From positions 1 through 64,000 of the forward strand of contig CAZABP010000022.1 of the NCBI GenBank assembly GCA_964483245.1: 64,000 bases of DNA, in the 5' to 3' direction. Positions 22,520 to 40,774 of the stretch are shown piece by piece. A program made the translations under genes and the position numbers. Below the pieces are notes generated by a model. It was not told where the DNA came from. It was given only the letters and a program-made list of their open reading frames with translations, and did no database searches. Each line of letters opens with the position of its first letter. The first letter of the stretch is position 1. This stretch comes from an uncultured candidatus Brocadiaceae bacterium (lineage in GTDB: Bacteria > Planctomycetota > UBA1135 > UBA2386).

Positions 22520-25288
22520 TCACGGCAGCCAGTTGCCGGCGCTGCCCTTGACCAGGCCGTCGGCGTCCAGCCACGAGTCGAGCACGATGCCGGTCGCCGG
22601 GTCGCTGAGCCGGCGGATCAGCGTCGCGCCGAGCGGGCCGGCGAACGTCGGGTCGGTTGCGCCGTCGCGCAGGTTCGGCACGTTCGGCACGACCATCGCG
22701 TGGTTGTTCGACGCGGTAGCGACGCCGGTCGGCAGCACGACGCGGTCCAGGTTGTAGTGGACGAGTGCCGGGTTGAAGCGCGTGTTCGGCGCGACATTGA
22801 ACGGCTGGCGGTTGGCGTCGCTGTCGAGCGGGTTGATCGGTCGGCCCTGCCGGTCGAACAGGAACAGACCGCTGCCGAGGCCGGCGACCATGTGCACCCA
22901 GATCGGCGAGTTCATCTGGTTGCCCGGATTCTGACCGATGTGCGATTGCAGCATCGTGAAGTCCAGGTTGCCGAAGTCGTTGTTCGCCATCTGCGTGCGG
23001 AACGTGCTGTAGATCCCGCTGTAGTTGGTCATGCCCTCGCTGGTCAGGTGGCACGCGACGCAATAGCGCGGTCCTTCATTGCTCGAAGTGACCTTGCCGC
23101 GGATCGAGTGCGCCAACATCGTGTTGAACCCCAGCGCCGGGAACTGCACGCCCGGATTGGCGCCGCGCCCCTCACGGTCGGAGAAGCAGAACACCTCCGA
23201 CCGCGCGTTGTTCAGGTCCTTGTATTGGAAGAACACCTTCGTGTTGGCGTTGAACTGCTCGATCTTGTTGTCCGGACCGACGCCGAGCTGGAACGGCACC
23301 GGTGACTGGTAGACGAAGTCGGCGTCCTCTTCCTCGAACACGATCCGCTGTCCGGTGATGTTCGAGAAGTTGTTGCCCTCGTCGTATTCACCCTGCAGGT
23401 GGCAGCCGATGCAGGTGTTGGTCCACGCCGAGTGGCACGACGCGCAGCTCATGTTGTCCATGTGGCTGAAACCGGCGGTGACGCCGCCAGCCTGCTGCGG
23501 GCCGATGCCGGTCGCCGCATTGCCGTCGGCGCGGCCCATCGAATACGACGCCTTGGCGCTGTAGACCGGCTGGTTCGTGAACGGGTGCAGCTTGCCACTG
23601 TCGACGACGACGTCCTTGGTCTGCACGACGAACAGGCGCCGGCCGCTGGTGCGGCTGGTCAGATACAGGTTGCCGTCCGCCTCCTTGACGACGTGGCGCA
23701 GCACCCTGCCGGCACCATCGAAGGCCATCTCCTTCTGTGTGCCGTCGTAGGCGGTGCCGACCATGGTCGGCGCATACGTGTCGACCTTGCCGTGGCACGA
23801 CTCGCAACGGATCTTGACGGCGTGCTCCATGCGGCTCGCGATCTGCTCGCCGTTCGGATCTCCGACGTCACCGCCGTGCACTTCGTAGCTGCCGTGGCAG
23901 TCGATGCAGCCCATGCCGGCCGCGTAGTGCACGTCCTCCGGCGTGTCGTCGCGGTTGTCGCCGTCGTAGTCCTCCATCAGGATGTACTGGTTCGCGTTGC
24001 GGCCGTTGAACGTGTTGTTGTCGACGACCGGATCGAACAGGCGCGTGTCGCGCGCGGTGTTGGTGAACCGGACCGGGTTGGCCGGGTACTGCACGCGGTT
24101 GCGCAGGTTTTGGTTCTGATCGAGGCGGATGCCCCAGTACTGCATGACCGTGCGGTTCGAACCCTGGTGGCAGCCGGCGCAGGTGTGGTCATCGATGCCC
24201 TCCTGCTGCATGCCGTTTGCCAGCGTTTTCTTGACGCTCAGGATCCGGTGCGCGCGCACGTGCGCGCGCTCCGGCTCGTCGATGTCATCCGGATCGATCG
24301 GTTCGGTCCGGTCGACGTTCGGGTCGCGGCTGCCGGTGCGCCCACCCAGGCTGTACGGCATGTGGCACGCCGTGCAGCCGGACGAGCGGTAGTCACCGGC
24401 GCGGTTGTTGGCGCCAGCGCTGCCGAGGTGGCAGTCACCGCAGGTGAATGCGATCTGCTCGTGGTACAGGTGCGCCAGCGGCGAGTTGCTGATCACGCTG
24501 CCGTCGGGATTCACGTCGTCGAGCAGCCCGGCCGCGTTGTAGGCCTGGTTGCGGAACATCCCCTGCCCCGGCGTGCCGCGCACGCTGTAGACCGGGTACT
24601 CCTTCAGCTCGCCGATCATGCCGAATGGCGCGGTCGCCGGGTTGAAGTCCGGGTCGACGACGGCGCGGAAGCCGAGGTCGTTCGCCGTGTCCAGGTACAG
24701 CCCGACGTGCGCCGGCAGGTGGTTGTCGTGGCCGGCCGCATACGTGGCGCCACCGAGGATGCCCATCTCGGTCGCCAGTGGACTGCCGGCGACGGAGTCG
24801 GCGTGGTTCTGGTGGCACTGCCCGCACGAACGCGCCTGCGTGACCACACGCAGGTCACCCGGCTGAATGAACTGCAGATAGTCGATCGCCGTGTACGTGC
24901 GCCCGTTGGCCGTGTAGTCCGGGAACTTGTCGATGCCGGCCAGAGTCAGCCGGTTGAAATACGCCAGCTGGTTGACGCGGAGGTTCTCGCGGTCGCCGAT
25001 CTGCGGCGGCGGCGGCACGTGGCTCTCCTCCTTCGTGGCGCCGTCCGGATTGCCGCCGTGACAGGTCGTGCAGGTCAGGTTGTCGGCACCTGGGAATGGG
25101 TGGGGGTTCTCGAGCCCCGGCCCGCTGTAGTCGTTGCCGGTCGACCCGTTGTGGCAGGTCATGCACGACTGCGCAGTCGAGGCGGAACCGTCCCGTCCGC
25201 CGCCGCTGCATGCGGCCAGCAGCGCGAATGCGCTGAGCGAAACGGCACGGAACCACGGAACGCGGAGACCGCGGCGCGGATTGCTCAT
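22520..25288 (-). CDS. multiheme c-type cytochrome lipoprotein (11 CXXCH)
   Basis: ATG at 25288; lipobox LLAACSGG; 11 CXXCH motifs (CMTCH, CTTCH, CGQCH, CGDCH, CTACH, CAGCH, CIDCH, CESCH, CASCH, CIGCH, CVACH); 922 aa. Confidence 0.8.
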   Translation of the reverse strand: MSNPRRGLRVPWFRAVSLSAFALLAACSGGGRDGSASTAQSCMTCHNGSTGNDYSGPGLENPHPFPGADNLTCTTCHGGNPDGATKEESHVPPPPQIGDRENLRVNQLAYFNRLTLAGIDKFPDYTANGRTYTAIDYLQFIQPGDLRVVTQARSCGQCHQNHADSVAGSPLATEMGILGGATYAAGHDNHLPAHVGLYLDTANDLGFRAVVDPDFNPATAPFGMIGELKEYPVYSVRGTPGQGMFRNQAYNAAGLLDDVNPDGSVISNSPLAHLYHEQIAFTCGDCHLGSAGANNRAGDYRSSGCTACHMPYSLGGRTGSRDPNVDRTEPIDPDDIDEPERAHVRAHRILSVKKTLANGMQQEGIDDHTCAGCHQGSNRTVMQYWGIRLDQNQNLRNRVQYPANPVRFTNTARDTRLFDPVVDNNTFNGRNANQYILMEDYDGDNRDDTPEDVHYAAGMGCIDCHGSYEVHGGDVGDPNGEQIASRMEHAVKIRCESCHGKVDTYAPTMVGTAYDGTQKEMAFDGAGRVLRHVVKEADGNLYLTSRTSGRRLFVVQTKDVVVDSGKLHPFTNQPVYSAKASYSMGRADGNAATGIGPQQAGGVTAGFSHMDNMSCASCHSAWTNTCIGCHLQGEYDEGNNFSNITGQRIVFEEEDADFVYQSPVPFQLGVGPDNKIEQFNANTKVFFQYKDLNNARSEVFCFSDREGRGANPGVQFPALGFNTMLAHSIRGKVTSSNEGPRYCVACHLTSEGMTNYSGIYSTFRTQMANNDFGNLDFTMLQSHIGQNPGNQMNSPIWVHMVAGLGSGLFLFDRQGRPINPLDSDANRQPFNVAPNTRFNPALVHYNLDRVVLPTGVATASNNHAMVVPNVPNLRDGATDPTFAGPLGATLIRRLSDPATGIVLDSWLDADGLVKGSAGNWLP

Positions 25289-27117: not shown

Positions 27118-27162
27118 GACGATGCCCTCCTCCTCCCACGCCACCCCCCAGAAGGACCCGCG

Positions 27163-28845: not shown

Positions 28846-29493
28846 TCAACGGATCCGCGCGTGGTTCCAGCTCGTCGTCACGTGGCAGCGTTGGCAGTCG
28901 TCGACGAAGCCGAGACCGATGTGCGGCGGGTTGTTGGCCTGCTGGACGTCGTCGACGTGACACGCGACGCACGCCGTGTCGGTCGGATAGATCCGCCCGG
29001 TCCAGATGCCGGGATGGCAGCGGTGGCAGCCGACCGCGAGGTGGGCGCCGGTCAGCGGGAACCGGGTCCGGTTGTGCATCTCGATCTGCCCCTCCGGCAT
29101 CCAGGTGCGCTGGCCGTGGCACTTGGTGCAGTCCTTGCCGAGCTCGCCTTGATGGAAGTCCTCGTGGCAGCCGGCGCAGCCGCGCGCGGCGAACACTTCG
29201 ACCGGCCCGCGGTCGTTGTGGCAACGAAGACACCGTGCCTGCGCGTGCGCGCCGACCAACGCGACCCCGGTCTCACGCTCGTGATCGAAGCGGAAGTCGT
29301 CGACCAGCACGTTCCAGGTCCGGCCGACGTGGCACAGGCTGCAATCGGCCGGGAACGAGTCGTGCGGCAGCACCGGACCGAGCGCCGACCACCAGCGATG
29401 CAGCGCGCCGTCGCGCGGCCCCTGCACCATGCAGCCGACCATGATCAGCAGCGGCAGCAGCGCCGCGATCAGCAGGTTTCTCTTGGTGCGCAT
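28846..29493 (-). CDS. 7-heme c-type cytochrome, paired-CXXCH type
   Basis: Signal peptide with possible lipobox (LIMVGC); 7 CXXCH; F-x-H...G-x-H...CxxCH repeats like the doubled-CXXCH domains of metal-reducer cytochromes. Confidence 0.8.
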   Translation of the reverse strand: MRTKRNLLIAALLPLLIMVGCMVQGPRDGALHRWWSALGPVLPHDSFPADCSLCHVGRTWNVLVDDFRFDHERETGVALVGAHAQARCLRCHNDRGPVEVFAARGCAGCHEDFHQGELGKDCTKCHGQRTWMPEGQIEMHNRTRFPLTGAHLAVGCHRCHPGIWTGRIYPTDTACVACHVDDVQQANNPPHIGLGFVDDCQRCHVTTSWNHARIR

Positions 29494-29506
29494 CGCTGTG
29501 CTCCGC

Positions 29507-31219
29507 TCAGAACTTCTGTTGCATGTAGAACCCGATCGACCACGCCAGATCCTCGCCGATCAGATCGAGCTGCCCATAGACGGACAGATCCTGACCCGCC
29601 GCGGTGTAGAAGCTGCGGCTGCCGCGGAACCGGTGTTGATCGAGGTCCGCGACGTCGCTCGGAAAACCGAACTCGTGCACGTGCGAGTACTCGTACAACC
29701 ACTGCCACATCCCATCGTTCGCGTCGGTCTCCCAGATGACCCGGCCGCCGATCACGGCGACCGCGTCCCCGGTGTTGCCGAACAGCGCGACCGTCGTGCG
29801 GCTCCGTTCGCCGAACCAGTCCTTGCGCTCGAACCCGAGCTCCCCGGCGACGCCTTCATGGTCGTCGTCGTTCCACGCCGCCAGATACGTGTGCAGATCC
29901 GTCTCCCGCGACCAGCGCCACCAACCGTCGAACGACAGCAGGTCCGACTCCGCGCGCGCGATCTCGGCCGCCCAGGTCGGCAGATAGTCCTGCCGCAGCA
30001 CCTCCGGATACGCATTGCGCCGCCACGCGAACTGCAAACGGTTGCCGTTCTCATAGCTGCGTGACGCCGATGCGACCGCCTGCGTCAGCTCGAGGCCGGT
30101 CCCCTTGTTGACGTCGTTGCCGCGGTAGTAGTCGATCCAGAACGTGCCGTGGAGCTGCCACGCATCCAGCGGCAGGTAGTGCCCCTTCAACACCACGAGA
30201 TCCCGGTCCGAATCGCCGTCGTGCCAGGTCTTCTGGAAGCCGCCGCCGAACGAGATCGTCTGCGCGAGGTCCGCCGACCACACGTAGTACAGCGACGCCT
30301 GCACGTCGTCCCAGCCGTCCAGGTTGTCGTTCGGCTCCGGCATGAAGCCGACCGCGGCACCGAACCGGTCGCCGAAGTGTCCGCGGATGCCCCACTCGAT
30401 CCCGTCCAGGATCCCGAACTCCGGCATCCCGACCTGCAGGAAACGCCCGAGCTTCCACATCTGCGGCGAGAACCGGTCCCCGCCCAGCCGGTACGAGAAG
30501 TCCCGCACCAGCCCATTGCCGCCGTCGGCGTCGTTGTATTCGGTGCGTGAGTTCAGCTCGCCGTCGAAGCGCAGCTCGCCGCCGAGATGGAACGGATTCG
30601 TCAACCGCGCATCGATGCCGGCGCGGATGAACGACTCGTCGAAGTCGCTCTCCGGATGCTTGGTCGCATCCCCGATCACGTACAGCCGCCCGCTCAGACC
30701 CGCGAGCCGTTCACTCGGGGGCACCGCGTCGACCTGCGCCAGCAGCGGTTTGTCAGGCGTGTAGTTCTCGTCCCGGTTGCGCCACTCCGGCTTGGTCGGA
30801 TCCTGAGGTGGTTCCTGGCCGGGTTGCTGCGGCTGCGGCTGCTGCGGGTCGACCGGTGATGGCTCCACCGGCGGCGGTGGCGGCACCGGGCGCGGCTGTT
30901 CGAACCGGCCGACCGGTACCAGCACTTCGCCGCGCGTGCCGGGTGCCGGCGACACGGCGCGCAGCTGCAGCTCGACCAATGCGCTGCGCTCGTCGATCCG
31001 CGCGATCGTGCCGTGCAGGATCTCACCGCTGCGCGGGCGCAGTTCGACGGCGTCGCCGACCTCGATCCGGTCGTTGCGCCCACGGTCGACCGTGACCGTC
31101 CCGGGTGTCGGCGACGAGACGACGCGTAGCTCGAGGCGGCGATGCGTCAGGTCCTGTGCCAGCAGCGGCGCAGCGAGGAACAGCAGGGCCGCCGGCGTCC
31201 AGCGCATCGCTGGCTTCAT
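29507..31219 (-). CDS. outer-membrane beta-barrel protein (porin-like), candidate porin of a porin-cytochrome complex
   Basis: Signal peptide MKPAMRWTPAALLFLAAPLLAQD; Pro/Gln-rich linker; alternating amphipathic strands rich in Gly/Tyr/Trp/Asp; C-terminal aromatic residue (..MQQKF). Confidence 0.65.
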   Translation of the reverse strand: MKPAMRWTPAALLFLAAPLLAQDLTHRRLELRVVSSPTPGTVTVDRGRNDRIEVGDAVELRPRSGEILHGTIARIDERSALVELQLRAVSPAPGTRGEVLVPVGRFEQPRPVPPPPPVEPSPVDPQQPQPQQPGQEPPQDPTKPEWRNRDENYTPDKPLLAQVDAVPPSERLAGLSGRLYVIGDATKHPESDFDESFIRAGIDARLTNPFHLGGELRFDGELNSRTEYNDADGGNGLVRDFSYRLGGDRFSPQMWKLGRFLQVGMPEFGILDGIEWGIRGHFGDRFGAAVGFMPEPNDNLDGWDDVQASLYYVWSADLAQTISFGGGFQKTWHDGDSDRDLVVLKGHYLPLDAWQLHGTFWIDYYRGNDVNKGTGLELTQAVASASRSYENGNRLQFAWRRNAYPEVLRQDYLPTWAAEIARAESDLLSFDGWWRWSRETDLHTYLAAWNDDDHEGVAGELGFERKDWFGERSRTTVALFGNTGDAVAVIGGRVIWETDANDGMWQWLYEYSHVHEFGFPSDVADLDQHRFRGSRSFYTAAGQDLSVYGQLDLIGEDLAWSIGFYMQQKF

Positions 31220-33288
31220 CGGCGTCCGGGGCCGCGACGCTGGAACGGCCGGCCGGCGTCGCCATGGCAGGCGACGCAGTCGGTCGGCAGTGGCCGGTAG
31301 CGGATGACGTCACGGTCACCCTGGCGGAACGGCTTGTGGCATGACGAGCAGGCGACGTTGCGGTGTTGGTCCCCGAGCTTGAACCGTGAGTGGACGTCGT
31401 GGCGGAACACCAGGTCGGCGAACGATTCGGCACCCCGGTGACAATTCCGGCAGTCGACCGGGCCGCCTTCGTCGAACTGACCACCGTGCGGATCCTGGTG
31501 GCAGTCACTGCAGTGCTTGCCGTAGGTGCGCGCCCAGGTGCGGCCGTGCTCGTCCGGCTCGGCGAGGCGCGCATGGCACGAGCTGCAATCGGTGCGCTGA
31601 TGCGCCCCCTGCAACGGGAACCCGGTCCACTGCGCATGATCGAACCCGTTGGGGAACGCACGGAACGACGAGTCGACGTGGCAGCGCGCGCAGCTCGTGC
31701 GCCCGAGCACGGCGCGCGGCAGGCCGAGCCGATCGAACTCCCCCTGGTGCGGATCGGCATGACAGGTCACACAACCCTTGAACTCGCCGTGCTTGCGCGC
31801 GACCGAGCCGAACCGGCGCCCGAGCTCATCCGGCTCGAGCGTGGCTTCGTGGCAGGCCGCGCAGTCCGCCTGCGCATGCGCGCCGGTCAGCGCGAACCCG
31901 GTCCAATGCCCGTGATCGAAGCCGCCCTGCGGCAGCTCGGCGAACTTCGTCGGTGCATGGCAGTGGGCGCAGGTGCCGGCCGGATTCGCACCGAGCCCGC
32001 GGGAAAAGCGGTCGAAGTAACCCCGGTGCGCATCCTCGTGGCATTGCTCGCAGCGCGACGCCGTGCCATGGAATGTCGCCGGTTGGTCCGCGTGGGCACG
32101 CTCGTGGCACTTGCTGCACTCGACCTCCGCATGGCTCGCGACCAGCGGGAAGTTCGTTGTTGCGTGCTTCTGTACCGTGAACGCATGCGGCGCGAAGTGC
32201 GTCCGCTCGTGGCAGTCGATGCAGCCGTTCGCCGCGAACGCCTTGCCGTCGAACTCACCGCGGTGCGCGTCCTCGTGGCAGCTGCGGCACTCGTCCGCCG
32301 ACCGTCCCGGATACCGCGCGTGGAACGGCTCGCGCGCCGGATCGTGACACTGCTCGCAGCGCACGGCGTCGTGCGGCAGCGCGAGCGTGAACCCGCTGCA
32401 AGCGTGCTGCTCCGGCGTCGTGAACACGCGCTCGTCGCGGAACTGCGTGTGGTTCGACGCGTGGCAGACCTTGCAGGATGATTCCGGCGCCACGCGCTCC
32501 AGCGCGGCGACGGCACTGACGAACTCCGGCCGGTGCGGCGATTCGTGGCAGTCGGCGCAACCGCGCGCGCGCCCCGCTACGCGCCGCTCGCCGATCGCCT
32601 CCAGTGAGTGCGCGTCGTCCGCCGCGTGGCACTCGCGGCAGGCGAGCTGCGCATGCCCGCCGGTCAGCGGCAGATGCCGGTCGTGACCATCCGCCGTCAG
32701 CTCGTTCCAGGCGAGCTGACCATGGCACTGGCTGCAGCTGATCTGCATCCGCCCTTCGTGCGCATCCTCGTGGCAGGACCCGCAGTCCTGCTGCAAGCCG
32801 AGGAACCGTTTCGCCCCCTTGGGCAGCTGCGCCACATCTGCGTGCGCATGGCACTGCTTGCAGTCGAGCGTCAGGTGGGTCCCGGCCATCGCGAAGCCGA
32901 CGGTCTGGTGGTCGAACTTCAGCGGATCGCCGACGCCGGCCATCGCGAAGCTGAGCCGGTTGACCAGCACGAACTCCTCGCCGTGGTGTTCGCTGTGGCA
33001 GCTGCCGCAGAGCTTCGCGCGCTCGGCGTCCAGTCCGCCGTGCAGCCCCTTGCGCTGCTCCAACTGCTCGCCGATCGGCGCGTGGCACTCCAGGCAGCTC
33101 GCGGTCATCTCGCCGAACCAGCCGCCGTGGCAGTGCGCGCAGCTGCCGAGCCCGACCAGCTCCGGTTCGCGCGCGTGCACGCCCGAGATCGGTCCGGGCG
33201 CCGTGCGCGTCAGATCGCTGGCGACGATCGCCAACACCCCGGCGAGCGACAGCGCGGCGATCCACAGCCTCGGGTGCAGGATCCTCAT
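31216..33288 (-). CDS. 23-heme c-type cytochrome, paired-CXXCH repeats
   Basis: ATG 33288 with GGAGGTGG Shine-Dalgarno (RBS) 5 nt upstream; N-terminal signal/anchor; 23 CXXCH counted; ATGA overlap with upstream gene. Confidence 0.8.
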   Translation of the reverse strand: MRILHPRLWIAALSLAGVLAIVASDLTRTAPGPISGVHAREPELVGLGSCAHCHGGWFGEMTASCLECHAPIGEQLEQRKGLHGGLDAERAKLCGSCHSEHHGEEFVLVNRLSFAMAGVGDPLKFDHQTVGFAMAGTHLTLDCKQCHAHADVAQLPKGAKRFLGLQQDCGSCHEDAHEGRMQISCSQCHGQLAWNELTADGHDRHLPLTGGHAQLACRECHAADDAHSLEAIGERRVAGRARGCADCHESPHRPEFVSAVAALERVAPESSCKVCHASNHTQFRDERVFTTPEQHACSGFTLALPHDAVRCEQCHDPAREPFHARYPGRSADECRSCHEDAHRGEFDGKAFAANGCIDCHERTHFAPHAFTVQKHATTNFPLVASHAEVECSKCHERAHADQPATFHGTASRCEQCHEDAHRGYFDRFSRGLGANPAGTCAHCHAPTKFAELPQGGFDHGHWTGFALTGAHAQADCAACHEATLEPDELGRRFGSVARKHGEFKGCVTCHADPHQGEFDRLGLPRAVLGRTSCARCHVDSSFRAFPNGFDHAQWTGFPLQGAHQRTDCSSCHARLAEPDEHGRTWARTYGKHCSDCHQDPHGGQFDEGGPVDCRNCHRGAESFADLVFRHDVHSRFKLGDQHRNVACSSCHKPFRQGDRDVIRYRPLPTDCVACHGDAGRPFQRRGPGRR

Positions 33289-35612
33289 CCGCCACCTCCG
33301 CGCAGGATCGAGCCGTACGCGAGCGCGTGGACGACGTGCACGATGACCAGCAGCACCATCAACGCGGCGACCCAGCGGTGGACGTAGCGCCACGTTGCGA
33401 GCAGCGCGCGCAGGTCCTCGTAGTGCGCCGCCATGACGGCGAGCCAGTGGGCTTCCCGCGCGAGCTGCACGGTCTCGCGGATCTGCGGCTCCGGCACGCC
33501 GTCGCGGCGACCGGTCGCCGCCAGCTCCCGCAGCAGCTTGCGCAACGAGCGTTGCATGCCGAGCAGGCCGAGCAGCCGGCCGACGAACGAAGTCCGCCAT
33601 TGCCGCTGGTGCAGCAGCGCGTCGATCCGCTCCCGCGCGAGCTGGCGGAAGCGCGCCTGCTCGCGATCCCAGTCGGCCGACGCACGGCCGAGCTTCGCCC
33701 GCACCTCGGCCAGCGCGAGCTCACGCCCGTTCGTCGCCCGTGGCACGTACGCATAGAAGTACCGCCCGATCGCGCCGCTGACGAACAGCACGACGAGACC
33801 CCAGAACGCGTGCCCGCCCGGCGTATCGCGCGGATTCATCGCCGCATGCAGCAGCGCGCACAGCAGCGCGAGCGTGCCGGTCGCGACGTGCACGCTCATC
33901 CAGGCCTGCAAGGACCCGAGCCGCACGCGCAGCCGCGGCGAGCGGCGCACCAGATACGCGAGGTTCATCACGATCAACACGACCGCGAAGATTCCGAGCC
34001 ACAGCCCAAGCCCGTCACCGGGCCGCAGCCAGGTGTGCTTCTCGCTGGTCGCGCGTTCGACCTGCGCACCGGCGTAGTAATCGAAGTGCCACAACGCCCA
34101 GGTCAGCGCGCCGAGCGACAGCACGAATCCCGCGCCGAGCGCACGCATCAGCCCGGTGCCTTGTGCTTCGGTCGCCGGCGCCTTTGGCCGCAGCTCCGGA
34201 TCGAACGAGACCCCGCTCTGCTCGAGCAGTTCGAACGGGGCGATCCCGCCGATCATCACGAACACGTCGTCGTTCGGCAGCCGCATCCGCCGCAGGCCCT
34301 GCGGAGTCTGCACGTCCAGCTCGACGGCGTCGGGGCGGATCGCGACGACTTCGCTGTGGAACACGATCTTCAGCCGGCCGGCGGCGAGATCGCGCTGCAC
34401 CCGCTCCTGGTTCTTGGTGCGGATCCGGAACAGCTCCGCCTTGCGGTACGACAGCGTGACCTGGTTGCCCGGCTGCTCGGCCAGCGCCAGCGCCGCCTCC
34501 ACCGCGCTGTCACCGCCGCCGACGACGAGGATCCGCCGGCCGGTGAACGAGTGCGCATCGAGCAGCGAGTACGCGACCTTCGGCAGCTCCTCGCCCGGGA
34601 CCCCGAGCAGCCGCGGCACGCCGCGCCGCCCGATCGCCAGGCAGACGTGACGCGCCGCCCAACGTTGCGTCACCGGGCCGGGGCCGCGTGCAGCGGTGCC
34701 GGGCCGTGCGGCAGCGGCGCCGGCCGCGACCCCTACGGCTTCGCGGCGCGCCGCCTCGTGGTGCACTTCCGCGCGAACCTCGAAGCCACCCTGCCCGTCC
34801 GCGAGCAGCCCGGTGAACACCTGCCCGTATTCGACCGGCAGCTCGTGCTCCGCCGCGATCCGCTGCCAGAGCTCGATCAGCTCCTCCTTGGTGTAGGTCG
34901 GGCGATCGAGCGCGCCGCCGAGCGGCAGCTCGACCGGCATCGTCAACACCAGCTTGCGGCGCGGGTACTTCGCGACCGTGCCGCCGAGCCACTGCTCCTG
35001 TTCGAGCGCGATCGCGCGCAGGCCCAGGCGTCTGGCTTCGAGCAGGCACGCGATTCCGGCCGGTCCGGCACCGACGACGACGAGATCGAACCGCTCGTCG
35101 CCAGGGATCGGCTCGGCGGCGACGCGACGTGCGACCTCGGCCGCGACCGCGGTGCCCTGCTCGACCGCGCTCTTGATCAACGCATGCGCGGTCACCTCGC
35201 CGGCGAGGAACAGCCCGGGCGAGCCGATCGCTTCGAGGCTCTCGTCGAGGACCGGGACGTCGCGCCGCGTCTCGAGGTTCGTCAGCGTGACCGTGATTGC
35301 GCCGACCGGACACTCCCGTTCGCACTCGGCGACGCCGACGCAGCGCGCCGGATTGACGACGGCGGCCTGCCCGTGCACGAGCGCCAGCACGCCTTCCTCC
35401 GGACAGACCTGCACGCACGTGCCGCAGCCGAGGCAGCGCGAGAGGTCGATCGTCGGGTGCTGCAGCTTCGTCTCGGCGCCGCCGAGCTCGTGCGAGCGAT
35501 CGCGTTCGGCGACCGACTTCGCCATCCGGCGCAGGTCGGTCCGGCGCGCCCACACGCTCAGGAACGCGATCCCGAGCGCGAAGACGAGCGTCAGCAGCAG
35601 GCTCCAGCTCAT
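33285..35612 (-). CDS. membrane-bound ferredoxin-flavoprotein oxidoreductase with C-terminal ferric-reductase-like bis-His transmembrane domain
   Basis: N-terminal TM helix; two 4Fe-4S motifs (CLGCGTCVQVCP, CVGVAECERECP); FAD/NAD(P) Rossmann motifs (VVVGAGPAGIA, LVVGGGDSAVEAA); C-terminal about 250 aa with 4-5 TM helices carrying H-x13-H pairs. Confidence 0.6.
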   Translation of the reverse strand: MSWSLLLTLVFALGIAFLSVWARRTDLRRMAKSVAERDRSHELGGAETKLQHPTIDLSRCLGCGTCVQVCPEEGVLALVHGQAAVVNPARCVGVAECERECPVGAITVTLTNLETRRDVPVLDESLEAIGSPGLFLAGEVTAHALIKSAVEQGTAVAAEVARRVAAEPIPGDERFDLVVVGAGPAGIACLLEARRLGLRAIALEQEQWLGGTVAKYPRRKLVLTMPVELPLGGALDRPTYTKEELIELWQRIAAEHELPVEYGQVFTGLLADGQGGFEVRAEVHHEAARREAVGVAAGAAAARPGTAARGPGPVTQRWAARHVCLAIGRRGVPRLLGVPGEELPKVAYSLLDAHSFTGRRILVVGGGDSAVEAALALAEQPGNQVTLSYRKAELFRIRTKNQERVQRDLAAGRLKIVFHSEVVAIRPDAVELDVQTPQGLRRMRLPNDDVFVMIGGIAPFELLEQSGVSFDPELRPKAPATEAQGTGLMRALGAGFVLSLGALTWALWHFDYYAGAQVERATSEKHTWLRPGDGLGLWLGIFAVVLIVMNLAYLVRRSPRLRVRLGSLQAWMSVHVATGTLALLCALLHAAMNPRDTPGGHAFWGLVVLFVSGAIGRYFYAYVPRATNGRELALAEVRAKLGRASADWDREQARFRQLARERIDALLHQRQWRTSFVGRLLGLLGMQRSLRKLLRELAATGRRDGVPEPQIRETVQLAREAHWLAVMAAHYEDLRALLATWRYVHRWVAALMVLLVIVHVVHALAYGSILRGGGG

Positions 35613-35670: not shown

Positions 35671-36480
35671 TCAGCGGCGCGTGGCCGTGCTGCGCGGCGT
35701 CGTGGTCGGGTTCGGGTTCGGTTTGGGGTTCGGGTTCGGCGTCGTCTGCATCGACGGCTCCAGCGGCGCGGCGCCGGACGGCGCGGCCGGGTCCATCGTC
35801 GTCGCCGTGGCCGAGTTCGCGATGTAGTCGCGTGCCGTCTCGAGGCAGCGGTTGAACCGTGTGTCCAGCTCGAGCGACAGATCGGCGATCGCGCGGGCGT
35901 CGTCCTTGATCTCGGTCAGCGCGCCGGAGTTGAAGTCGTGGCGCAGGAAGTACGCCAGGTCGCGCGCCTGCTGGTTGAAGCTGTCGTAGCCGGCTGCGGC
36001 GCTCTTGGCGTGTGCGATCAGGCTCTGGTAGCGCTGCCAGGTCATGTCGTAGCGCGCCTGGCTGCGCCGGCGCAGCTGCAGGTTCGAGATCTCGAGCAGG
36101 TCCTGGTTCCAGTGGTCGAACACCGGCGTCGCGGCCGACTGCAGCTCGCGCACGGTGCCGTGCAACCGCTCTGCCTGCTGCTCCGACTCCTGGATCGCCC
36201 GCTGGTACTCCCCGAACGCGGCGCTCGGGTCACCCTTTGGATTCGCCGACGTCAGCGCTGCCATCAGATCGGTCGTGCTCTGAACCTTCTGCTTGCTCAG
36301 TTCCGCCTCGACGTGGACGCGCTCGACCCAGGTCATCAGCGCATCGATGCGCTCGACGGTCGGGCTCGTCGCGGGGCCGCTGCCGACCAGCCCAGAAACC
36401 CAGCTGCAGGCACCGAGGCCCGCCAGCGCAAGCACGCCGGCAGACGTCGCCAAGATCTTCGTTGCTCTCACTCTCGTCAC
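35671..36480 (-). CDS. lipoprotein (hypothetical) with C-terminal PNPNPKPNPNP repeat
   Basis: Lipobox LAGLGAC; coiled-coil-like body; C-terminus encoded by a GGGTTC hexamer tandem repeat. Confidence 0.5.
   Translation of the reverse strand: MTRVRATKILATSAGVLALAGLGACSWVSGLVGSGPATSPTVERIDALMTWVERVHVEAELSKQKVQSTTDLMAALTSANPKGDPSAAFGEYQRAIQESEQQAERLHGTVRELQSAATPVFDHWNQDLLEISNLQLRRRSQARYDMTWQRYQSLIAHAKSAAAGYDSFNQQARDLAYFLRHDFNSGALTEIKDDARAIADLSLELDTRFNRCLETARDYIANSATATTMDPAAPSGAAPLEPSMQTTPNPNPKPNPNPTTTPRSTATRR
35705..35743. repeat. GGGTTC-type hexanucleotide tandem repeat (about 6 units)
   Basis: GTCGGGTTCGGGTTCGGTTTGGGGTTCGGGTTCGGCGTC encoding PNPNPKPNPNP at the C-terminus of lipoprotein 35671-36480. 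Confidence 0.7.
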
Positions 36481-36611: not shown

Positions 36612-37664
36612 ATGGGATCGCAGTCATCGGCCTGGCTCGGGCTCCTGCTGTTGGCAGGATGCGGGGGTGCGGAGCGGACGCACCGGATCGGCCCGCCGCG
36701 CGTCGTGCCGGGGGAGCTGAAACTCGAAGTCCCGCCGGCAGTCCGGCATGGATTCGCGATGCAGGCACCGGATCCGGCGGCGTCGGCGCAGGCTTCGCTC
36801 GCCTACGACCTGCCACCGGGCTGGGTCACCGGCGCGCCGGGCGGGATGCGGATGCTGAGTTTCACGGCACCGGGGGGCATCGACGTGTCGGTGACCTCGC
36901 TCGGCGGCGCGGGCGGTGGGCTCGCAGCGAATCTCGACCGTTGGCGCGAACAGCTCGGACTCGCACCACTGACGCCGGCGGAGCTGGCGGCGTTGCCGCG
37001 TCGCACGGTGCTCGGCAGCGACGACGCGGTCGCGATCGACTTCCGCGGCGCCTGGCGCGGCGGCGGTCAGGAGATCGCGCAGGCGCGGATGCTTGGCATC
37101 GTCGTGACGCAGCCGGGTGGCACGCTGTTCGTCAAGGCCGTTGGGGCCGCGACCGCCGTCGATGCACAGGTGCGCGCATTCGACGCGTTCGTCGCGAGCC
37201 TGCGGCCGGCGACGGCGGCCGCACCTGCGGCTCCGGGTGGTGCTGCGGCGCCGCCGGCGACGGGCGGTGATCTCGCGTGGAGCGTGCCCTCGGGCTGGAC
37301 CAGTGAACCGGGCGCGGCGATGCGCGCGGTCACGCTGCGGCCGGGCGGAGATCGGGAGCTCGATGCCTATGTCGTCGTGCTCAGCGGCGCGGCCGGTGGC
37401 GTCGCCGCAAACCTCGACCGTTGGCGCGAGCAGCTCGGGCTGCCGAAGCTGACGCAGGCCGAGCGTGATGCGCTGCCGAGCATCGACATGCTCGGCGCGC
37501 CGGCGCCGCTGTTCTTCGCCGAGAACGGCAAGCTCGCCGTGCTCGGGACGGTCGCGCGGCTCGGGCAGGACAGCCTGTTCGTCAAGCTGGTCGGACCGGC
37601 CACGAAGGTGCCGCAGCATCGCGATGCGTTCGTGCGGTTCTGCCAGAGCTTGGTGCTGCGATGA
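36612..37664 (+). CDS. lipoprotein with internally duplicated about 120-aa domain (hypothetical)
   Basis: Lipobox LLLAGCGG; two copies of a module containing GG(L/V)AANLDRWREQLGL(A/P)..T..E..ALP; stop overlaps ccsBA start. Confidence 0.5.
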   Translation: MGSQSSAWLGLLLLAGCGGAERTHRIGPPRVVPGELKLEVPPAVRHGFAMQAPDPAASAQASLAYDLPPGWVTGAPGGMRMLSFTAPGGIDVSVTSLGGAGGGLAANLDRWREQLGLAPLTPAELAALPRRTVLGSDDAVAIDFRGAWRGGGQEIAQARMLGIVVTQPGGTLFVKAVGAATAVDAQVRAFDAFVASLRPATAAAPAAPGGAAAPPATGGDLAWSVPSGWTSEPGAAMRAVTLRPGGDRELDAYVVVLSGAAGGVAANLDRWREQLGLPKLTQAERDALPSIDMLGAPAPLFFAENGKLAVLGTVARLGQDSLFVKLVGPATKVPQHRDAFVRFCQSLVLR

Positions 37665-40600
37665 GTTGGCTGCTGCAAGGATTCGCGGTGCTCGCGTCGT
37701 ATCGGCTGGCGTTCGTCTGCCTGGCCGGGCTGTTCGTGACGACCTGGCTCGGAACGCTGTACCAGGTCGACCACGGGCTGTGGGCGGCGCAGTGGGCGTA
37801 CTTCGAATCGTGGCTGCTGTGGCAGCGGCTCGGGGATCTGTTCGTTGGCAGCGGGATGCCGGCGTGGCTCGACGACAGCAGGCTCGCGCTGCCGTTGCCG
37901 GGCGGGATGCTGTGGATGTCGCTGCTCGGCGTCAGTCTCGTCTGCGGCGGCTTCGTGCGGCTGTTGCGCTCGATGCGCGGTGGCGCGCGGCTGATCCCAC
38001 GCGCCGGCGTGTTGGTCGTGCACTGCGGGATCGCGCTGCTGTTGATGGCTGGCTGGGTGCGGTTCGCGCAGGCCAGCGAGGGTTCGATCACGCTGACCGA
38101 GGGGCAGACGGCACGCAGCTATGCCAGCTTCCACGACTGGGAGCTCGTCGTCGCGCGGCAGGTCGGCGATGGCGAGGTCGAAGAGCACCTGATCCCGGGC
38201 GCGCGGTTCCTGGACCTGGAGGACGGCGAGCAGGCGGAGTTCGTCTCCGACCTGCTGCCGTTCCGGATCGTCGTCGTGCAGGCGGCGCGCAACAGCGACG
38301 TGCGCCGGCACGGCGGTGAGTTCCTGCTGCGGCGCAAGCTCCCGCTGGCGGAGAACGAGCGCAACATGGCTGGTTGCGTGGTCGCGCTGCGCGATGCGAG
38401 CGGCGGTGAGCTGCGCGGCGTGCTGTGCGGCACCGACACCGCACCGTGGACGGTCGGCATCGGTGACGAACGCTGGGCGCTGGCGCTGCGCAAGGAGACC
38501 TGGCCGCTGCCGTTCGCGTTGCGGCTGGAGGACTTCACGGCGGAGATGCACCCTGGCACGACGAAACCGAAAGCCTTCCGCAGCGATGTCACGGTGCGGA
38601 CCGCTGCCGGCGAACGACGTACCAGGATCGAGATGAACGAGCCGCTGCGGCTCGGCGACGTCGTCGTGTACCAGAGCACCTGGGGTCAACAGGGAGGGAT
38701 GCCGGGGGCGCCGCTGTTCTCCGGGTTCCAGGTCGTGCGCAATCCGGCGGATCAATGGCCGCTGTACGGCTGCATCCTGATCGCGCTCGGGATGCTGCTC
38801 GCGTTCGGTTGGACGCTGGTGCGGTTCCTGACGCGCGAGACGTCGCGGGTCCGCGGCGCCGGTGCACTGCTGCTGGCCGGCGTGTTCGCCGCGCCATTGA
38901 GCACGCAGGCGCAGGAACCGCGCGCGCAGCCGTGGCCGGCCGCGGCGCTCGAGCATTGCGCGCGGCTGCCGGTGCAGGAGGACGGCCGCGTCAAGCCGCT
39001 GTTGACGCACGTCTCGTATCTGCTGCTGCGGATCAACGGCAAGCGCACGGTCAGCCTCGGTGCCGACCCGAGGTTCGGCGCCGCGGCCGGTGCGTCGCTC
39101 GACCCGGTTGCGTGGGCGCTCGACGTGCTGCTGTTCCCCGAGCAGGCGGACCTCTACCCGGTGTTCCAGGTGCAGACCAGCGAGGTGATCGATGCGATCG
39201 GCCTCGAGCACGACGGCAAGCGCAAGCGCGACCGGTACTCGTTCGCGGAGCTGCGCCCCGGTCTGCCGCAGTTGCTGGCACTCGCACAGCGGTTCGAGCG
39301 GATCGCCGAGAAGGACCGCTCCGGGATCGAGCAACAGCTCGTGATGCTGGCGCGCAACATCGCCGACTACGACCGGCTGGCGCGTTCGCTGGATGCTGCC
39401 CGGCTGCGGTTCCAGCCCGAAGGGGACGCGACGCTGCTTGCGCTGCTGGGCGGCCGCAGCGAGCTGCGGTTCTCGGAGCTGCTGCCGCATTGGCCGGCGC
39501 TGCAGACGGCGCGCGAGCAGAGCGCGGGCGCCAAGCGCTGGATCGCGCAGGCGCAGGGGATCGGCCGCGACGATGGCCTGCTGCACGTGCTGCCGCCACC
39601 GGATCCGGCGCAGGCTGCGTGGTTGCTGCCGGCCGATCTCGTGCGCGAGCATGCCCCGCCGGTCGCCGAGCCGGTGCTGGCGCTGCTGGCGCTGTTCGAG
39701 GAGCTGGTCGATGCGCGGCAGCAGCCGGCCCGGTTCGCTGCGGTCGCCGGCAGGCTGGACGAGGCGCTGCACGCGCAGCTGCGCGCGCGCGGCGAAGGCG
39801 CGAAGCTCGACCTCGAAGTCTCCTATCTGCAGGCGGACTGGTGCTGGCGCGCGCTGCTCGCGTTCGGACTCGCGCTGGTCGTGACCGCGGTCTCCTGGCT
39901 GCGACCGCGCAGCCGCCTGCTCGGCGGTGCGGCCTGGCTCGCGACGCTGCTCGGCGCCGGCCTGCTGGTGACCGGCATCGTGATCCGCTGCATCCTGCGC
40001 GATCGGCCGCCGATCAGCGGGCTCTACGAGACGATCCTGTTCGTGACCGCGGCGATCGTGCTGACCGGGCTCGTCGTCGAGCGGTTCTGGCGCCGCCGCG
40101 TGCTGTTGTCGCTGGCGGCTCTGCTCGGGTTCGCCGGGATGTTCCTGGCCGGACGGTTCGAAGCGAGCGAAGCACGCGACACGATGCCGACGCTGCAGGC
40201 CGTGCTCGACACGAACTTCTGGCTCGCGACGCACGTCACGGTCATCAACCTCGGCTACGCCGGTGCATTGCTCGCCGGCTTCCTGGCGCACCTGTATCTG
40301 CTGCGCGGGCGGCGGCGCGATCCGGCGTTCAGCGCCGCGATCGCACGCGCGACGTACGGCACGCTGTGCTTCGCGACGTTGTTCACGACCGTCGGCACGA
40401 TCCTCGGCGGGATCTGGGCGAACGATTCGTGGGGCCGGTTCTGGGGTTGGGATCCCAAGGAGAACGGCGCGCTGATGATCGTGCTGTGGAACCTGATGAT
40501 CCTGCACGGGCGGCTCGGCGGGATCGTCCGCGAGCACGGGATCGCGATGCTGGCGGTCGCCGGCAACGTGGTCGTCGTGTTCTCCTGGTTCCACACCAAC

Positions 40601-40762
40601 CTGCTCGGCGTGGGGTTGCACAGCTACGGGTTCGCGAGCGGGCTGAGCCTGGCGGTCTGGACGTTCTATGCGCTCGAGGTGGGAGTCCTGGTCGCCGCGC
40701 AGATCCTGCATGTCCGGGCGCGTGCATTGGCCTCCGTCGACCCGGCCGCAGCCGCTGGCTAA
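37661..40762 (+). CDS. ccsBA: fused cytochrome c biogenesis protein CcsBA (system II, ResB/Ccs1 fused to CcsA/ResC)
   Basis: 1033 aa; N-terminal ResB-like TM and large periplasmic domain; C-terminal CcsA part with WWD motif WGRFWGWDPKENGAL and conserved His. Confidence 0.75.
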   Translation: MSWLLQGFAVLASYRLAFVCLAGLFVTTWLGTLYQVDHGLWAAQWAYFESWLLWQRLGDLFVGSGMPAWLDDSRLALPLPGGMLWMSLLGVSLVCGGFVRLLRSMRGGARLIPRAGVLVVHCGIALLLMAGWVRFAQASEGSITLTEGQTARSYASFHDWELVVARQVGDGEVEEHLIPGARFLDLEDGEQAEFVSDLLPFRIVVVQAARNSDVRRHGGEFLLRRKLPLAENERNMAGCVVALRDASGGELRGVLCGTDTAPWTVGIGDERWALALRKETWPLPFALRLEDFTAEMHPGTTKPKAFRSDVTVRTAAGERRTRIEMNEPLRLGDVVVYQSTWGQQGGMPGAPLFSGFQVVRNPADQWPLYGCILIALGMLLAFGWTLVRFLTRETSRVRGAGALLLAGVFAAPLSTQAQEPRAQPWPAAALEHCARLPVQEDGRVKPLLTHVSYLLLRINGKRTVSLGADPRFGAAAGASLDPVAWALDVLLFPEQADLYPVFQVQTSEVIDAIGLEHDGKRKRDRYSFAELRPGLPQLLALAQRFERIAEKDRSGIEQQLVMLARNIADYDRLARSLDAARLRFQPEGDATLLALLGGRSELRFSELLPHWPALQTAREQSAGAKRWIAQAQGIGRDDGLLHVLPPPDPAQAAWLLPADLVREHAPPVAEPVLALLALFEELVDARQQPARFAAVAGRLDEALHAQLRARGEGAKLDLEVSYLQADWCWRALLAFGLALVVTAVSWLRPRSRLLGGAAWLATLLGAGLLVTGIVIRCILRDRPPISGLYETILFVTAAIVLTGLVVERFWRRRVLLSLAALLGFAGMFLAGRFEASEARDTMPTLQAVLDTNFWLATHVTVINLGYAGALLAGFLAHLYLLRGRRRDPAFSAAIARATYGTLCFATLFTTVGTILGGIWANDSWGRFWGWDPKENGALMIVLWNLMILHGRLGGIVREHGIAMLAVAGNVVVVFSWFHTNLLGVGLHSYGFASGLSLAVWTFYALEVGVLVAAQILHVRARALASVDPAAAAG

Positions 40763-40774
40763 CTTCGTCCGGCG

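Follow-up and report, generated by a model that had tools for sequence, protein, structure and literature searches.

A porin-cytochrome gene cluster of Planctomycetota with a putative NAD(P)H-linked inner-membrane oxidoreductase

Introduction

To our knowledge, no characterised outer-membrane conduit of a diderm bacterium (Mtr, Pcc, Ext, Mto/Pio) starts anywhere but at an inner-membrane quinol dehydrogenase. The closest concept to the locus described here is that of the hypothetical PCC3 and PCC4 clusters of He et al. 2017 (PMC5566968), which contain a di-heme-b inner-membrane protein (IMP) with the same motifs as those reported below; PCC3 of Gallionellaceae is treated in PMC10734462. A 2026 survey of metagenome-assembled genomes (MAGs; PMC13264449) noted ferredoxin-NADP reductase genes beside porin-cytochrome clusters, and the clusters of Verrucomicrobia and Acidobacteriota (PMC5615132; 2026 peat preprint) differ in composition from the present one. 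No paper on the Planctomycetota cluster was found in the literature searched.

The window analysed here is a stretch of 64,000 nt from contig CAZABP010000022.1 (assembly GCA_964483245.1) of an uncultured candidatus Brocadiaceae bacterium (Planctomycetota). Like PCC3 and PCC4, its cluster combines a porin with a periplasmic cytochrome of very high heme density and with outer or extracellular cytochromes, and all of these clusters are bioinformatic predictions without biochemistry. The hemes of the periplasmic cytochrome number 21, 24 or 27 in PCC3, and 23 in the window with 20, 26 or 29 in its relatives, both series stepping by three. By motif, without direct comparison to the reference IMPs, the membrane module is also shared: some 300 residues with five transmembrane (5-TM) helices, of which helices 3 and 5 carry W-x3-H-x13-H and helix 4 carries SGxxG. 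Unlike in PCC3/PCC4, this module forms a single protein with a presumably cytoplasmic Fe-S and FAD/NAD(P) part, or is encoded next to it in other phyla, which suggests a link to pyridine nucleotides rather than the quinone-pool link drawn for PCC3/PCC4. The outer cytochromes of the window are, in contrast to those of PCC3/PCC4, small (7 and 11 hemes) lipoproteins, and the hosts are Planctomycetota instead of Fe(II)-oxidising Proteobacteria. Judging from sequence alone, we lean towards the view that the cluster would encode a complete trans-envelope wire exporting electrons from cytoplasmic NAD(P)H. This reading rests on features that the analysis establishes: protein domains and motifs, the numbers of heme motifs, export signals, a predicted barrel and the co-conservation of the genes.

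Gene organization

Four tightly packed minus-strand genes encode a fused inner-membrane oxidoreductase of 775 aa (33285..35612), a 23-heme c-type cytochrome of 690 aa (31216..33288), an outer-membrane protein of 570 aa (29507..31219) and a 7-heme lipoprotein cytochrome of 215 aa (28846..29493). The oxidoreductase and 23-heme genes overlap by 4 nt (ATGA, the start codon overlapping the stop of the upstream gene), as do the 23-heme and barrel genes, and a 13-nt gap separates the barrel gene from the 7-heme gene. The 23-heme gene starts at the ATG at 33288, with GGAGG 7 nt upstream, and a public gene caller returns the identical 690-aa product; on the strength of this start, the ribosome-binding sequence, the ATGA junction and the gene caller, a longer 794-aa reading frame extending to 33600 was rejected as a high-GC artefact. 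A promoter and terminator scan gave nothing informative.

The barrel gene directly adjoins genes for exported multiheme cytochromes, which satisfies the operational definition of a porin-cytochrome (PCC) cluster (Shi 2014; He 2017); a cytochrome-in-barrel complex and electron conduction are inferred. A preliminary description of the window had proposed this four-gene module and likened its layout to the Geobacter Pcc and Mtr conduits. The module held in its reading frames, all four present at the coordinates it gave, in its CXXCH counts and in its junctions, and the likeness is supported as a porin-cytochrome arrangement, its function being inferred and not shown. At the family level there is no sequence match between the window proteins and Geobacter sulfurreducens Pcc (OmaB-OmbB-OmcB) or Shewanella MtrCAB: scans against Pfam and NCBIfam returned no named Geobacter-type family, and the DmsE/MtrA model TIGR03508 scored 45 bits against a cut-off of 192 bits, so that membership in MtrAB/MtoAB/PioAB is not met. 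The window further departs from Pcc/Mtr in its barrel (22 predicted strands against 26 in MtrB), in its periplasmic partner (23 hemes against 8-10) and in an electron input that does not belong to the CymA, ImcH or CbcL kind of quinol dehydrogenase.

The claim that a ccsBA maturation gene and two lipoprotein genes follow the module failed. The fused ResB-CcsA protein (System II cytochrome c maturation, 1033 aa; Pfam ResB and Cytochrom_C_asm, TIGR03144 CcsB-type match) is encoded upstream on the plus strand (37661..40762), in a divergent operon opened by the plus-strand gene of a 350-aa lipoprotein without assigned function (36612..37664; lipobox LLAGC, only a weak NPCBM_assoc match). The latter adjoins ResB/CcsA in about 30 related loci, and ResB and CcsA are separate genes in most relatives. 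The second lipoprotein, a DUF2959 protein (35671..36480, minus strand; Pfam DUF2959, E 4.5e-19; lipobox LGAC), in fact lies immediately upstream of the oxidoreductase, at a distance of 58 nt on the same strand, and is probably the first gene of the operon; it occupies this position in 50 of the 71 loci with enough upstream DNA. Additional Pfam scans of the DUF2959 protein, the 350-aa lipoprotein and the N-terminal domain of the barrel protein yielded nothing useful. A 729-aa minus-strand reading frame at 26425-28614, at first taken as ccsBA, is spurious by codon-position GC and has no Pfam match; the true genes there are on the plus strand (DNA_alkylation, NfeD, SPFH).

These three unrelated genes lie downstream of the cluster and are followed by the minus-strand gene of an 11-heme lipoprotein cytochrome of 922 aa (22520..25288; 11 CXXCH, lipobox LAAC). 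In most relatives the 11-heme gene directly follows the 7-heme gene, without the intervening genes of the window, and it is found downstream in 37 of 52 loci. In the relatives, the 11-heme cytochrome belongs to the system.

The inner-membrane oxidoreductase

The 775-aa protein consists of an N-terminal transmembrane helix, a ferredoxin-like domain, an FAD-NAD(P) domain and a C-terminal 5-TM domain, with six hydrophobic helices in total. Matches to Fer4 (Fer4_6/7/10) and Pyr_redox_2/3 exceed the Pfam cut-offs. The ferredoxin-like domain carries seven cysteines (C60xxC63xxC66xxxC70P ... C91x5C97xxxC101P). The FAD-NAD(P) domain (residues ~170-480) resembles thioredoxin reductase (TrxR), YpdA and ferredoxin-NADP+ reductase (FNR), with invariant GAGPAG and GGGDSA motifs and no CxxC in residues 170-480. 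Its nearest PDB relatives are YpdA/Bdr, TrxR and TrxR-like FNRs (3ab1, 3lzw, 5twb IruO, 7a76), of which 7a76, 5twb and 3lzw are the best matches in sequence and fold. It thus meets the criteria for TrxR-like FNR/YpdA flavoproteins, namely two Rossmann dinucleotide motifs, the TrxR fold and the lack of a redox-active CxxC. Those proteins are soluble and stand alone, whereas the window domain is fused between the ferredoxin and putative di-heme membrane domains and anchored by the N-terminal helix.

In the 5-TM domain, the motifs W571-x3-H575-x13-H589 and W741-x3-H745-x13-H759 contain four transmembrane histidines, forming two H-x13-H pairs, that are invariant in 23/23 and 80/80 orthologue sequences; a further motif, SGAIG in the 775-aa protein, takes the form [S/T]GA[IV]G across the alignment. 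No match of this domain to a heme-b family reaches the Pfam gathering score, but weak matches recur: DUF4405 and Ferric_reduct give one below the threshold in 17/17 members, and Ni_hydr_CYTB does so in 16/17. For the ferric reductase superfamily (PF01794), the window domain scores 20.4 bits against a threshold of 28, the best E-value among the 17 members being 8e-6. Profile comparison also matched the domain weakly to helix B of cytochrome b6, which carries heme ligands. That the domain holds two b-type hemes is inferred from the invariant, correctly spaced histidines, without heme-binding data. The N-terminal helix is followed by an R/K-rich stretch, there is no twin-arginine signal and the positive loops lie on the same side; we therefore infer a topology in which the Fe-S/FAD module is cytoplasmic and the two His pairs line up in depth at both ends.

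If the hemes are bound as inferred, the design parallels that of NOX, FRE and MsrQ/YedZ (PF01794), in which electrons leave a cytoplasmic NAD(P)H/flavin module and move outward across a membrane through a helix bundle whose two H-x13-H helices hold two bis-His b hemes. The dehydrogenase differs, being TrxR/YpdA-like with an extra ferredoxin domain where NOX has an FNR-fold FAD/NADPH domain, as does the proposed acceptor, a multiheme cytochrome instead of O2 or Fe(III) directly.

Another possibility for the nature of this protein is a quinone-linked conduit, in which the putative di-heme-b domain would act as a quinol dehydrogenase in the style of CbcL, ImcH or CymA feeding the cytochromes, while the fused flavo-FeS module would reduce quinone locally or act in regulation or repair. 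Reaction with quinones is the rule among bacterial di-heme-b membrane subunits such as NarI, FdnI, HydC and cytochrome b, the weak matches of the 5-TM domain include Ni_hydr_CYTB and Cytochrome_B, and a quinone-active cytochrome b was suggested for the IMP by He et al. (PMC5566968). A few IMP homologues also lie beside a cytochrome gene without an adjacent flavoprotein gene, on the short contig L090. Against this, the flavo-FeS module and the IMP remain fused or adjacent in several phyla, which points to direct electron hand-over, and the combination of FRD-type H-x13-H pairs with a dehydrogenase domain in the cytoplasm recalls the NOX/FRE enzymes, which do without quinone. We regard this reading as unlikely, although a quinone link cannot be excluded, because di-heme-b membrane proteins are usually quinone-reactive.

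Multiheme cytochromes and the outer-membrane barrel

The CXXCH motifs number exactly 7 in the 28846-29493 frame and 23 in the 31216-33600 frame, and the counts are not due to chance, since orthologues keep them: of those of the 23-heme protein, 59/70 have 23 motifs (20, 26 or 29 in the remainder), while 56/69 of those of the 7-heme protein have 7 and 38/38 of those of the 11-heme protein have 11. The 23-heme and 7-heme proteins spend about 30 aa per heme, a low ratio that is a trait of wire-like cytochromes (PMC5566968); the 11-heme protein spends 84 aa. N-terminal export signals are present on all the cytochromes.

The 23-heme protein begins with a hydrophobic helix, which is likely an uncleaved membrane anchor, followed by a conserved SPGPL..VH motif, and ends in a basic tail. 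Its Pfam matches (Cytochrome_C7, Cytochrom_CIII, c3_2), together with weak matches to the GSU1996 fragment 3ouq (E 0.005) and to TIGR04257, relate it to the c7-domain 'nanowire' cytochromes of Geobacter, with which it shares c7/c3-like repeats and the low residue-to-heme ratio. It differs from them in being about twice as long and probably membrane-anchored, and in the linkage of its gene to those of a barrel and of an input module in the inner membrane. The 7-heme protein (lipobox MVGC) matches Cytochrome_C7, the 11-heme protein matches MtrC/MtrF domain II/IV weakly, at the Pfam cut-off, and the lipobox cysteine is conserved in both families.

The 570-aa protein has a signal-peptide-like N-terminus, a small beta domain (residues 26-102), a Pro-rich linker, a predicted barrel and a C-terminal F, and matches no Pfam or NCBIfam family. 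AlphaFold2 (pLDDT 80) predicts 22 beta-strands over residues 174-569, so the model meets the size of roughly 20 strands or more required to admit a cytochrome; from barrel geometry we estimate that it is wide enough for a heme chain.

Alternatively, the cluster might not cross the outer membrane. Its cytochromes would then store electrons in the periplasm or lead them to a reductase there, and the barrel, co-regulated with them, would serve for diffusion or uptake, for instance of a soluble metal chelate. Several observations make this reading unlikely. The barrel gene sits between two cytochrome genes (4-nt overlap, 13-nt gap), a place kept in 59/60 loci, and co-occurs with cytochromes even where gene order is shuffled; two of the cytochromes are lipoproteins, which suits the role of outer partner in known porin-cytochrome complexes; and the estimated barrel width would accommodate hemes.

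Conservation in related genomes

Related loci were gathered by a profile search of genome contigs with the oxidoreductase alignment. The four genes keep order and strand in 59 of the 60 loci with enough DNA, all from Planctomycetota and including the isolate Saltatorellus ferox Poly30. In other phyla, homologues of the cluster parts co-occur in a different gene order and the oxidoreductase is split. In an Elusimicrobiota MAG (L087) the flavo-FeS and 5-TM parts are encoded by two separate, neighbouring genes, beside which lie homologues of both the 23-heme and the 7-heme cytochrome and of the barrel; a 19-heme protein at an Elusimicrobiota locus shares, in its N-terminal part, 48% identity with the 7-heme protein of the window. 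The same separation with adjacency is seen on an unassigned contig (L089), beside multiheme-cytochrome genes and a barrel homologue, and, in opposite order, in an Ignavibacteria MAG (L091), beside multiheme-cytochrome genes. The split-module loci are supported by E-values of 5e-93, 3e-31, 1e-78 and 2e-60 and by hhalign at 96-97%. Barrel homologues thus occur in two of the three split loci (L087, L089), and the 534-aa outer-membrane protein candidate of the Ignavibacteria has no detectable homology to the barrel family. Stand-alone 5-TM homologues of 280-300 aa (E to 1e-36), none tied to a named PCC3/PCC4 host, also carry H-x13-H at both sites in L087 and L088.

The preliminary description would have been refuted by a non-barrel protein, by cytochromes without export signals, or by a lack of co-conservation or co-transcription. 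None of these applies, with only conservation evidence bearing on co-transcription: the beta-barrel with an aromatic C-terminus (22 strands in AlphaFold2, terminal F), the N-terminal export signals and the conservation of the set (59/60) all held. So did its suggestion of a different electron-input protein, which is the most interesting part of the system. That the conduit might be undescribed held only in part, being preceded by the PCC3/PCC4 IMP (PMC5566968) and the FNR genes near clusters (PMC13264449).

Proposed mechanism

What could be the path of electrons through this cluster? In the wire reading, the cytoplasmic TrxR-like, FNR-type FAD domain would oxidise NAD(P)H and pass electrons to the fused 7-Cys ferredoxin-like domain, and from there to the two putative b-type hemes on the W-x3-H-x13-H helices and across the inner membrane, with H575/H745 near the cytoplasmic and H589/H759 near the periplasmic face. 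The membrane-anchored 23-heme cytochrome would carry them over the periplasm, and the outer membrane would be crossed inside the 22-strand barrel; by analogy with OmaB-OmbB-OmcB and PCC3, this cytochrome is likelier than the 7-heme lipoprotein to span the periplasm and enter the barrel. The 7-heme and 11-heme lipoproteins may be terminal reductases at the outer membrane or surface, although surface exposure is without data for Planctomycetota, and the extracellular acceptor could be Fe(III)/Mn(IV) minerals, humics or possibly O2. The 41 c-hemes would be matured by the divergent ResB-CcsA operon. Domain architecture, His pairs, the weak but recurrent di-heme-b matches, heme counts, the low residue-to-heme ratio, the barrel model, overlapping start and stop codons, the 59/60 linkage and the loci with split but adjacent modules support this reading. 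Against it weigh the scores of the 5-TM domain below the Pfam gathering threshold and the Ignavibacteria outer-membrane protein without detectable homology to the barrel. Cofactor binding, topology, protein contacts, flow direction and physiological acceptor are all inferred, there being no experiment on any member. Outward flow would follow the membrane potential, and the system would therefore be an NAD(P)+-regenerating electron sink, akin to NOX or ferric reductases, and not a proton-pumping step.

The opposite direction, uptake through surface oxidation of Fe(II), Mn(II) or another donor with inward flow to the quinone pool or NAD(P)+, deserves consideration. The 5-TM domain carries the same set of motifs as the PCC3/PCC4 IMP, a protein known from Fe(II) oxidisers, and the proposal of uptake for PCC3/PCC4 (PMC5566968) counts against the export reading. 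Electrons can flow both ways through multiheme conduits such as Mto/Mtr (PMC10734462). TrxR-like FNRs are able to reduce NADP+ and work in either direction, which weighs against a fixed direction of export. However, inward transfer to NAD(P)+ (-320 mV) opposes the membrane potential and the Fe(II)/Mn(II) redox gradient, and the cluster has no proton-coupled module. Heterotroph-type genes are present in the window, no carbon-fixation or Cyc2-type genes are adjacent, and most PCC-bearing MAGs are interpreted as heterotrophs in the 2026 survey (PMC13264449). Uptake therefore appears improbable.

If export is correct, direct coupling to a cytoplasmic NAD(P)H flavoenzyme would set this conduit apart from the quinol-fed ones. 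It would work as a valve through which electrons are discharged and NAD(P)+ is regenerated, bypassing the quinone pool, in a logic closer to eukaryotic NOX/FRE enzymes or to the flavin-based extracellular electron transfer of Listeria. For the 5-TM IMP of PCC3/PCC4, which has long lacked an explanation, the cluster also suggests a function that can be tested. A bolder hypothesis is that the module, fused or split, is a quinone-independent, NOX-like NAD(P)H:extracellular-acceptor oxidoreductase acting across the whole Gram-negative envelope and conserved across Planctomycetota, Elusimicrobiota, Ignavibacteria/Bacteroidota and others. We advance it only tentatively and would narrowly bet against it; if true, it would be the first diderm extracellular electron-transfer route to draw directly on cytoplasmic pyridine nucleotides, and might clarify the role of the PCC3/PCC4 inner-membrane protein.

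The oxidoreductase family occurs in about 295 species-level genomes, and its MAGs derive from activated sludge, groundwater, lakes, and hydrothermal and subsea-tunnel biofilms; this breadth suggests a possible role in Fe, Mn or humic cycling by heterotrophic Planctomycetota. The preprint describing the cultured hosts, Saltatorellus ferox Poly30 and Engelhardtia mirabilis Pla86, presents them only as isolates and reports no anaerobic or metal-reducing physiology. Through these two hosts, genetics and biochemistry of the system are feasible.

Gene layout of the cluster

Long spurious reading frames are common in the window because of its G+C content of about 70%, and the real frames were chosen by codon-position GC. 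Five consecutive genes lie on the minus strand: a DUF2959 lipoprotein (36480-35671; Pfam E 4.5e-19, lipobox LGAC), an oxidoreductase of 775 aa (35612-33285), a 690-aa cytochrome with 23 CXXCH motifs (33288-31216), a 570-aa protein without a family match (31219-29507) and a 215-aa cytochrome with 7 CXXCH motifs and the lipobox MVGC (29493-28846). Their junctions are, in this order, a gap of 58 nt, an ATGA overlap, an overlap of 4 nt and a gap of 13 nt. A 794-aa frame from the ORF list was rejected as the 23-heme gene, since GGAGG lies 7 nt upstream of the ATG at 33288 and a public gene caller also predicts a 690-aa product.

Downstream of the cluster are unrelated plus-strand genes (DNA_alkylation, NfeD, SPFH), and beyond them a minus-strand gene encodes a 922-aa lipoprotein cytochrome with 11 CXXCH motifs (25288-22520). 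Upstream and divergent are the plus-strand genes for a 350-aa lipoprotein (36612-37664) and a fused ResB-CcsA System II maturation protein of 1033 aa (37661-40762). The preliminary description, which had reported four packed genes for two cytochromes, a barrel and a membrane oxidoreductase, is thus confirmed in its gene content; the ccsBA gene and two lipoprotein genes that it placed downstream are real, but lie upstream. ResB and CcsA are fused in the window and in two related loci (L011 and L022), and are encoded by two genes in most others. Two very long minus-strand frames, 26425-28614 (729 aa) and 37367-42220 (1617 aa), lie opposite real genes; both result from the 70% G+C, and a reading of the window based on ORFs could be misled by them.

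Conservation in Planctomycetota

A pattern scan limited to one genome per species found relatives of the oxidoreductase in 295 genomes, the best 80 loci all belonging to Planctomycetota MAGs and to Saltatorellus ferox Poly30; Planctomycetes bacterium Pla86 also has a member of the barrel family. The S. ferox locus lies at about 1.690-1.712 Mb of NZ_CP036434.1. Among loci with at least 4.7 kb of downstream DNA, the order oxidoreductase, 23-heme cytochrome, barrel, 7-heme cytochrome is kept on one strand in 59 of 60. The 11-heme gene comes next in 37 of 52 loci, and a DUF2959 gene stands upstream in 50 of 71. Only in L054 was neither a barrel gene nor a 7-heme gene detected behind the 23-heme gene, and two further loci (L047 and L055) carry about 1.2 kb of extra DNA between the 23-heme and barrel genes.

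A second, 'type II' cluster combines a periplasmic cytochrome of 26-29 hemes with a 15-24-heme homologue of the 7-heme protein, and has neither the 11-heme nor the DUF2959 gene. It is found at loci L003, L058, L060, L061, L072, L078, L081, L084 and L085, and several MAGs harbour both types (for example, the locus pairs L007 and L085, L013 and L084, L039 and L060).

The proposed input oxidoreductase

The soluble part of the oxidoreductase matches 4Fe-4S ferredoxin-type and Pyr_redox_2/3 families above threshold, and the nearest solved relatives of residues ~170-480 are YpdA/Bdr, low-Mr thioredoxin reductases and TrxR-like ferredoxin-NADP+ reductases. Both dinucleotide motifs of the flavin domain are invariant, and no CxxC is present in this domain in the alignment, so the protein is not a disulfide reductase. 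Seven conserved cysteines are present in the ferredoxin domain, where V, H or I replaces the middle Cys of the second motif (residues 91-101, C-x2-[V/H/I]-x2-C-x3-CP). Such a set might hold one 4Fe-4S and one 3Fe-4S or otherwise atypical cluster rather than the standard 2x[4Fe-4S], although this is only an inference.

Five hydrophobic helices make up the C-terminal 309 residues. Two of them carry the motif W-x3-H-x13-H, with H575/H589 and H745/H759 invariant in 23 and then in 80 sequences, and [S/T]GxxG lies on the helix between them. Sub-threshold matches to DUF4405 and Ferric_reduct were obtained in 17 of 17 diverse members and to Ni_hydr_CYTB in 16 of 17; heme-ligand helix B of cytochrome b6 matched the membrane-domain profile weakly (E 0.03). 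The N-terminal helix lacks a twin-arginine signal and precedes an Arg-rich stretch, and the charges of the loops are consistent, which places the Fe-S/FAD module in the cytoplasm. This topology, with each His pair at matched membrane depth, is inferred from the sequence and modelled helices; the AlphaFold2 model of the whole protein is only moderate (pLDDT 67) and unfit as a check of the transmembrane fold.

The cytochromes and the predicted barrel

The 23-heme protein, with a ratio of 30 residues per heme, contains a further 41 histidines; it gives c7/c3-type Pfam matches and weakly resembles a GSU1996 fragment. The orthologues share no AxA site in the N-terminal hydrophobic helix, behind which an SPGPL..VH motif is conserved; we infer from sequence that the helix is a membrane anchor adjoining the input protein. 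Heme motif counts are well kept: 23 in 59 of 70 orthologues (the remainder 20, 26 or 29), 7 in 56 of 69 and 11 in 38 of 38, and the lipobox Cys is conserved in the 7-heme and 11-heme proteins. In the orthologues from loci L001-L085 the motifs of the long periplasmic cytochrome number 20, 23, 26 or 29, that is, steps of three. Together with the 21, 24 or 27 hemes of the Gallionellaceae PCC3 cytochromes (PMC10734462), this might reflect gain and loss of triheme c7-like modules. The long cytochrome of the window and its orthologues ends in a conserved poly-basic tail (e.g. RRRKRR).

For the 570-aa protein, 28 aligned homologues (29-48% identity) served to build an AlphaFold2 model (mean pLDDT 80), in which a signal helix precedes a small beta domain (residues 26-102), a disordered Pro-rich linker and an uninterrupted run of 22 predicted strands over residues 174-569. 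The small domain is conserved, with a VDRG..DG..VGD motif, and is kept in the barrel homologues of an Elusimicrobiota MAG and of the unassigned contig L089; the linker comprises 60-70 disordered residues rich in Pro, Gln and Glu. No family match was found for this region (residues 26-170). Conceivably, the small domain docks the periplasmic cytochrome or plugs the barrel.

Related loci beyond Planctomycetota

The five-helix (5-TM) domain, used as query in an exhaustive search, returned 1376 representatives, 417 of them at E <= 1e-10, and many are stand-alone proteins of 280-300 aa. Gene contexts were inspected at four loci. The Elusimicrobiota locus L087 encodes, in order, a 19-heme cytochrome (48% identity to its window counterpart, E 2e-60), a barrel homologue (hhalign 96%), a 450-aa Fer4-FAD protein (39%, E 5e-93), a 296-aa 5-TM protein (34%, E 3e-31) and a 17-heme cytochrome (35%, E 1e-78). 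L089 has split modules in the gene order of the window, with a barrel homologue at hhalign 97%. In L091, an Ignavibacteria MAG, the 5-TM gene is followed by a Fer4-FAD gene (35% identity, E 1e-88), two cytochrome genes and the gene of an OMP candidate with no detectable relation to the window barrel. On the short contig L090 a 5-TM gene adjoins a cytochrome gene, with no flavoprotein gene adjacent. Modules that are fused in one lineage and adjacent in others are a classic sign of cooperation, and on the strength of this arrangement we infer that the flavo-FeS and predicted di-heme modules probably work together.

Relation to known clusters and putative electron pathway

The closest known concept is that of PCC3 and PCC4, hypothetical clusters defined by He et al. 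2017 (PMC5566968), which are themselves without experimental test. Both include a conserved inner-membrane protein with SGxxG, a pair of W-x3-H-x13-H motifs and five TM helices, which those authors likened to ferric reductase domains; the median heme number of the periplasmic cytochromes in these clusters is 21. A 2026 survey of karst MAGs (PMC13264449) noted ferredoxin-NADP reductase genes beside porin-cytochrome clusters. The cluster-bearing MAG SAR44 (L038) shares the SAR prefix of its isolate name with the MAGs of that survey, whose main text does not mention it by name. OFTM MAGs are also among the related loci, and their source study gave porin-cytochrome genes as presence/absence only. 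In the literature searched, we found no paper analysing the Planctomycetota cluster, its fusion or the cross-phylum module. Shi et al. 2014 reportedly listed IALB_1838/1839 of Ignavibacterium album as an outlier Pcc pair, said to have the largest periplasmic cytochrome. Since L091 has the PCC3/PCC4-type membrane protein and Fer4-FAD beside cytochromes, the published pair may also represent the proposed NAD(P)H-linked module.

The porin-cytochrome interpretation of the preliminary description is supported at the level of sequence analysis only: judged from sequence alone, the cluster is likely a variant of this kind for which we found no earlier description. Its distinguishing and testable feature is the NAD(P)H-type flavo-FeS module coupled to a putative di-heme membrane protein. 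Electrons would pass from NAD(P)H through FAD and Fe-S to the b heme on the cytoplasmic side and then to that on the periplasmic side, from which the 23-heme wire would carry them across the periplasm to the barrel, and the 7- and 11-heme lipoproteins to an external acceptor. Every step of this conduit is without experimental support. Outward flow is inferred because it would be downhill and aided by the membrane potential, while reduction of NAD(P)+ by Fe(II)/Mn(II) is strongly uphill and the cluster contains no coupling device. A link to quinone via the b-heme domain is a possible alternative that cannot be excluded. Docking of the 7-heme protein in the barrel, as previously suggested, remains possible; the analogy of OmaB-OmbB-OmcB and PCC3 makes the 23-heme protein the likelier one to enter from the periplasm.

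Other genes of the window

A type III polyketide synthase with chalcone/stilbene synthase domains (10324-11439) adjoins an MFS transporter, recalling the alkylresorcinol clusters reported in Planctomycetota. An AddAB-like pair of large minus-strand genes, with no relation to the proposed electron conduit, occupies 52434-59227: one product is a UvrD-type helicase that includes a PD-(D/E)XK nuclease domain, and the other is likewise a PD-(D/E)XK protein.
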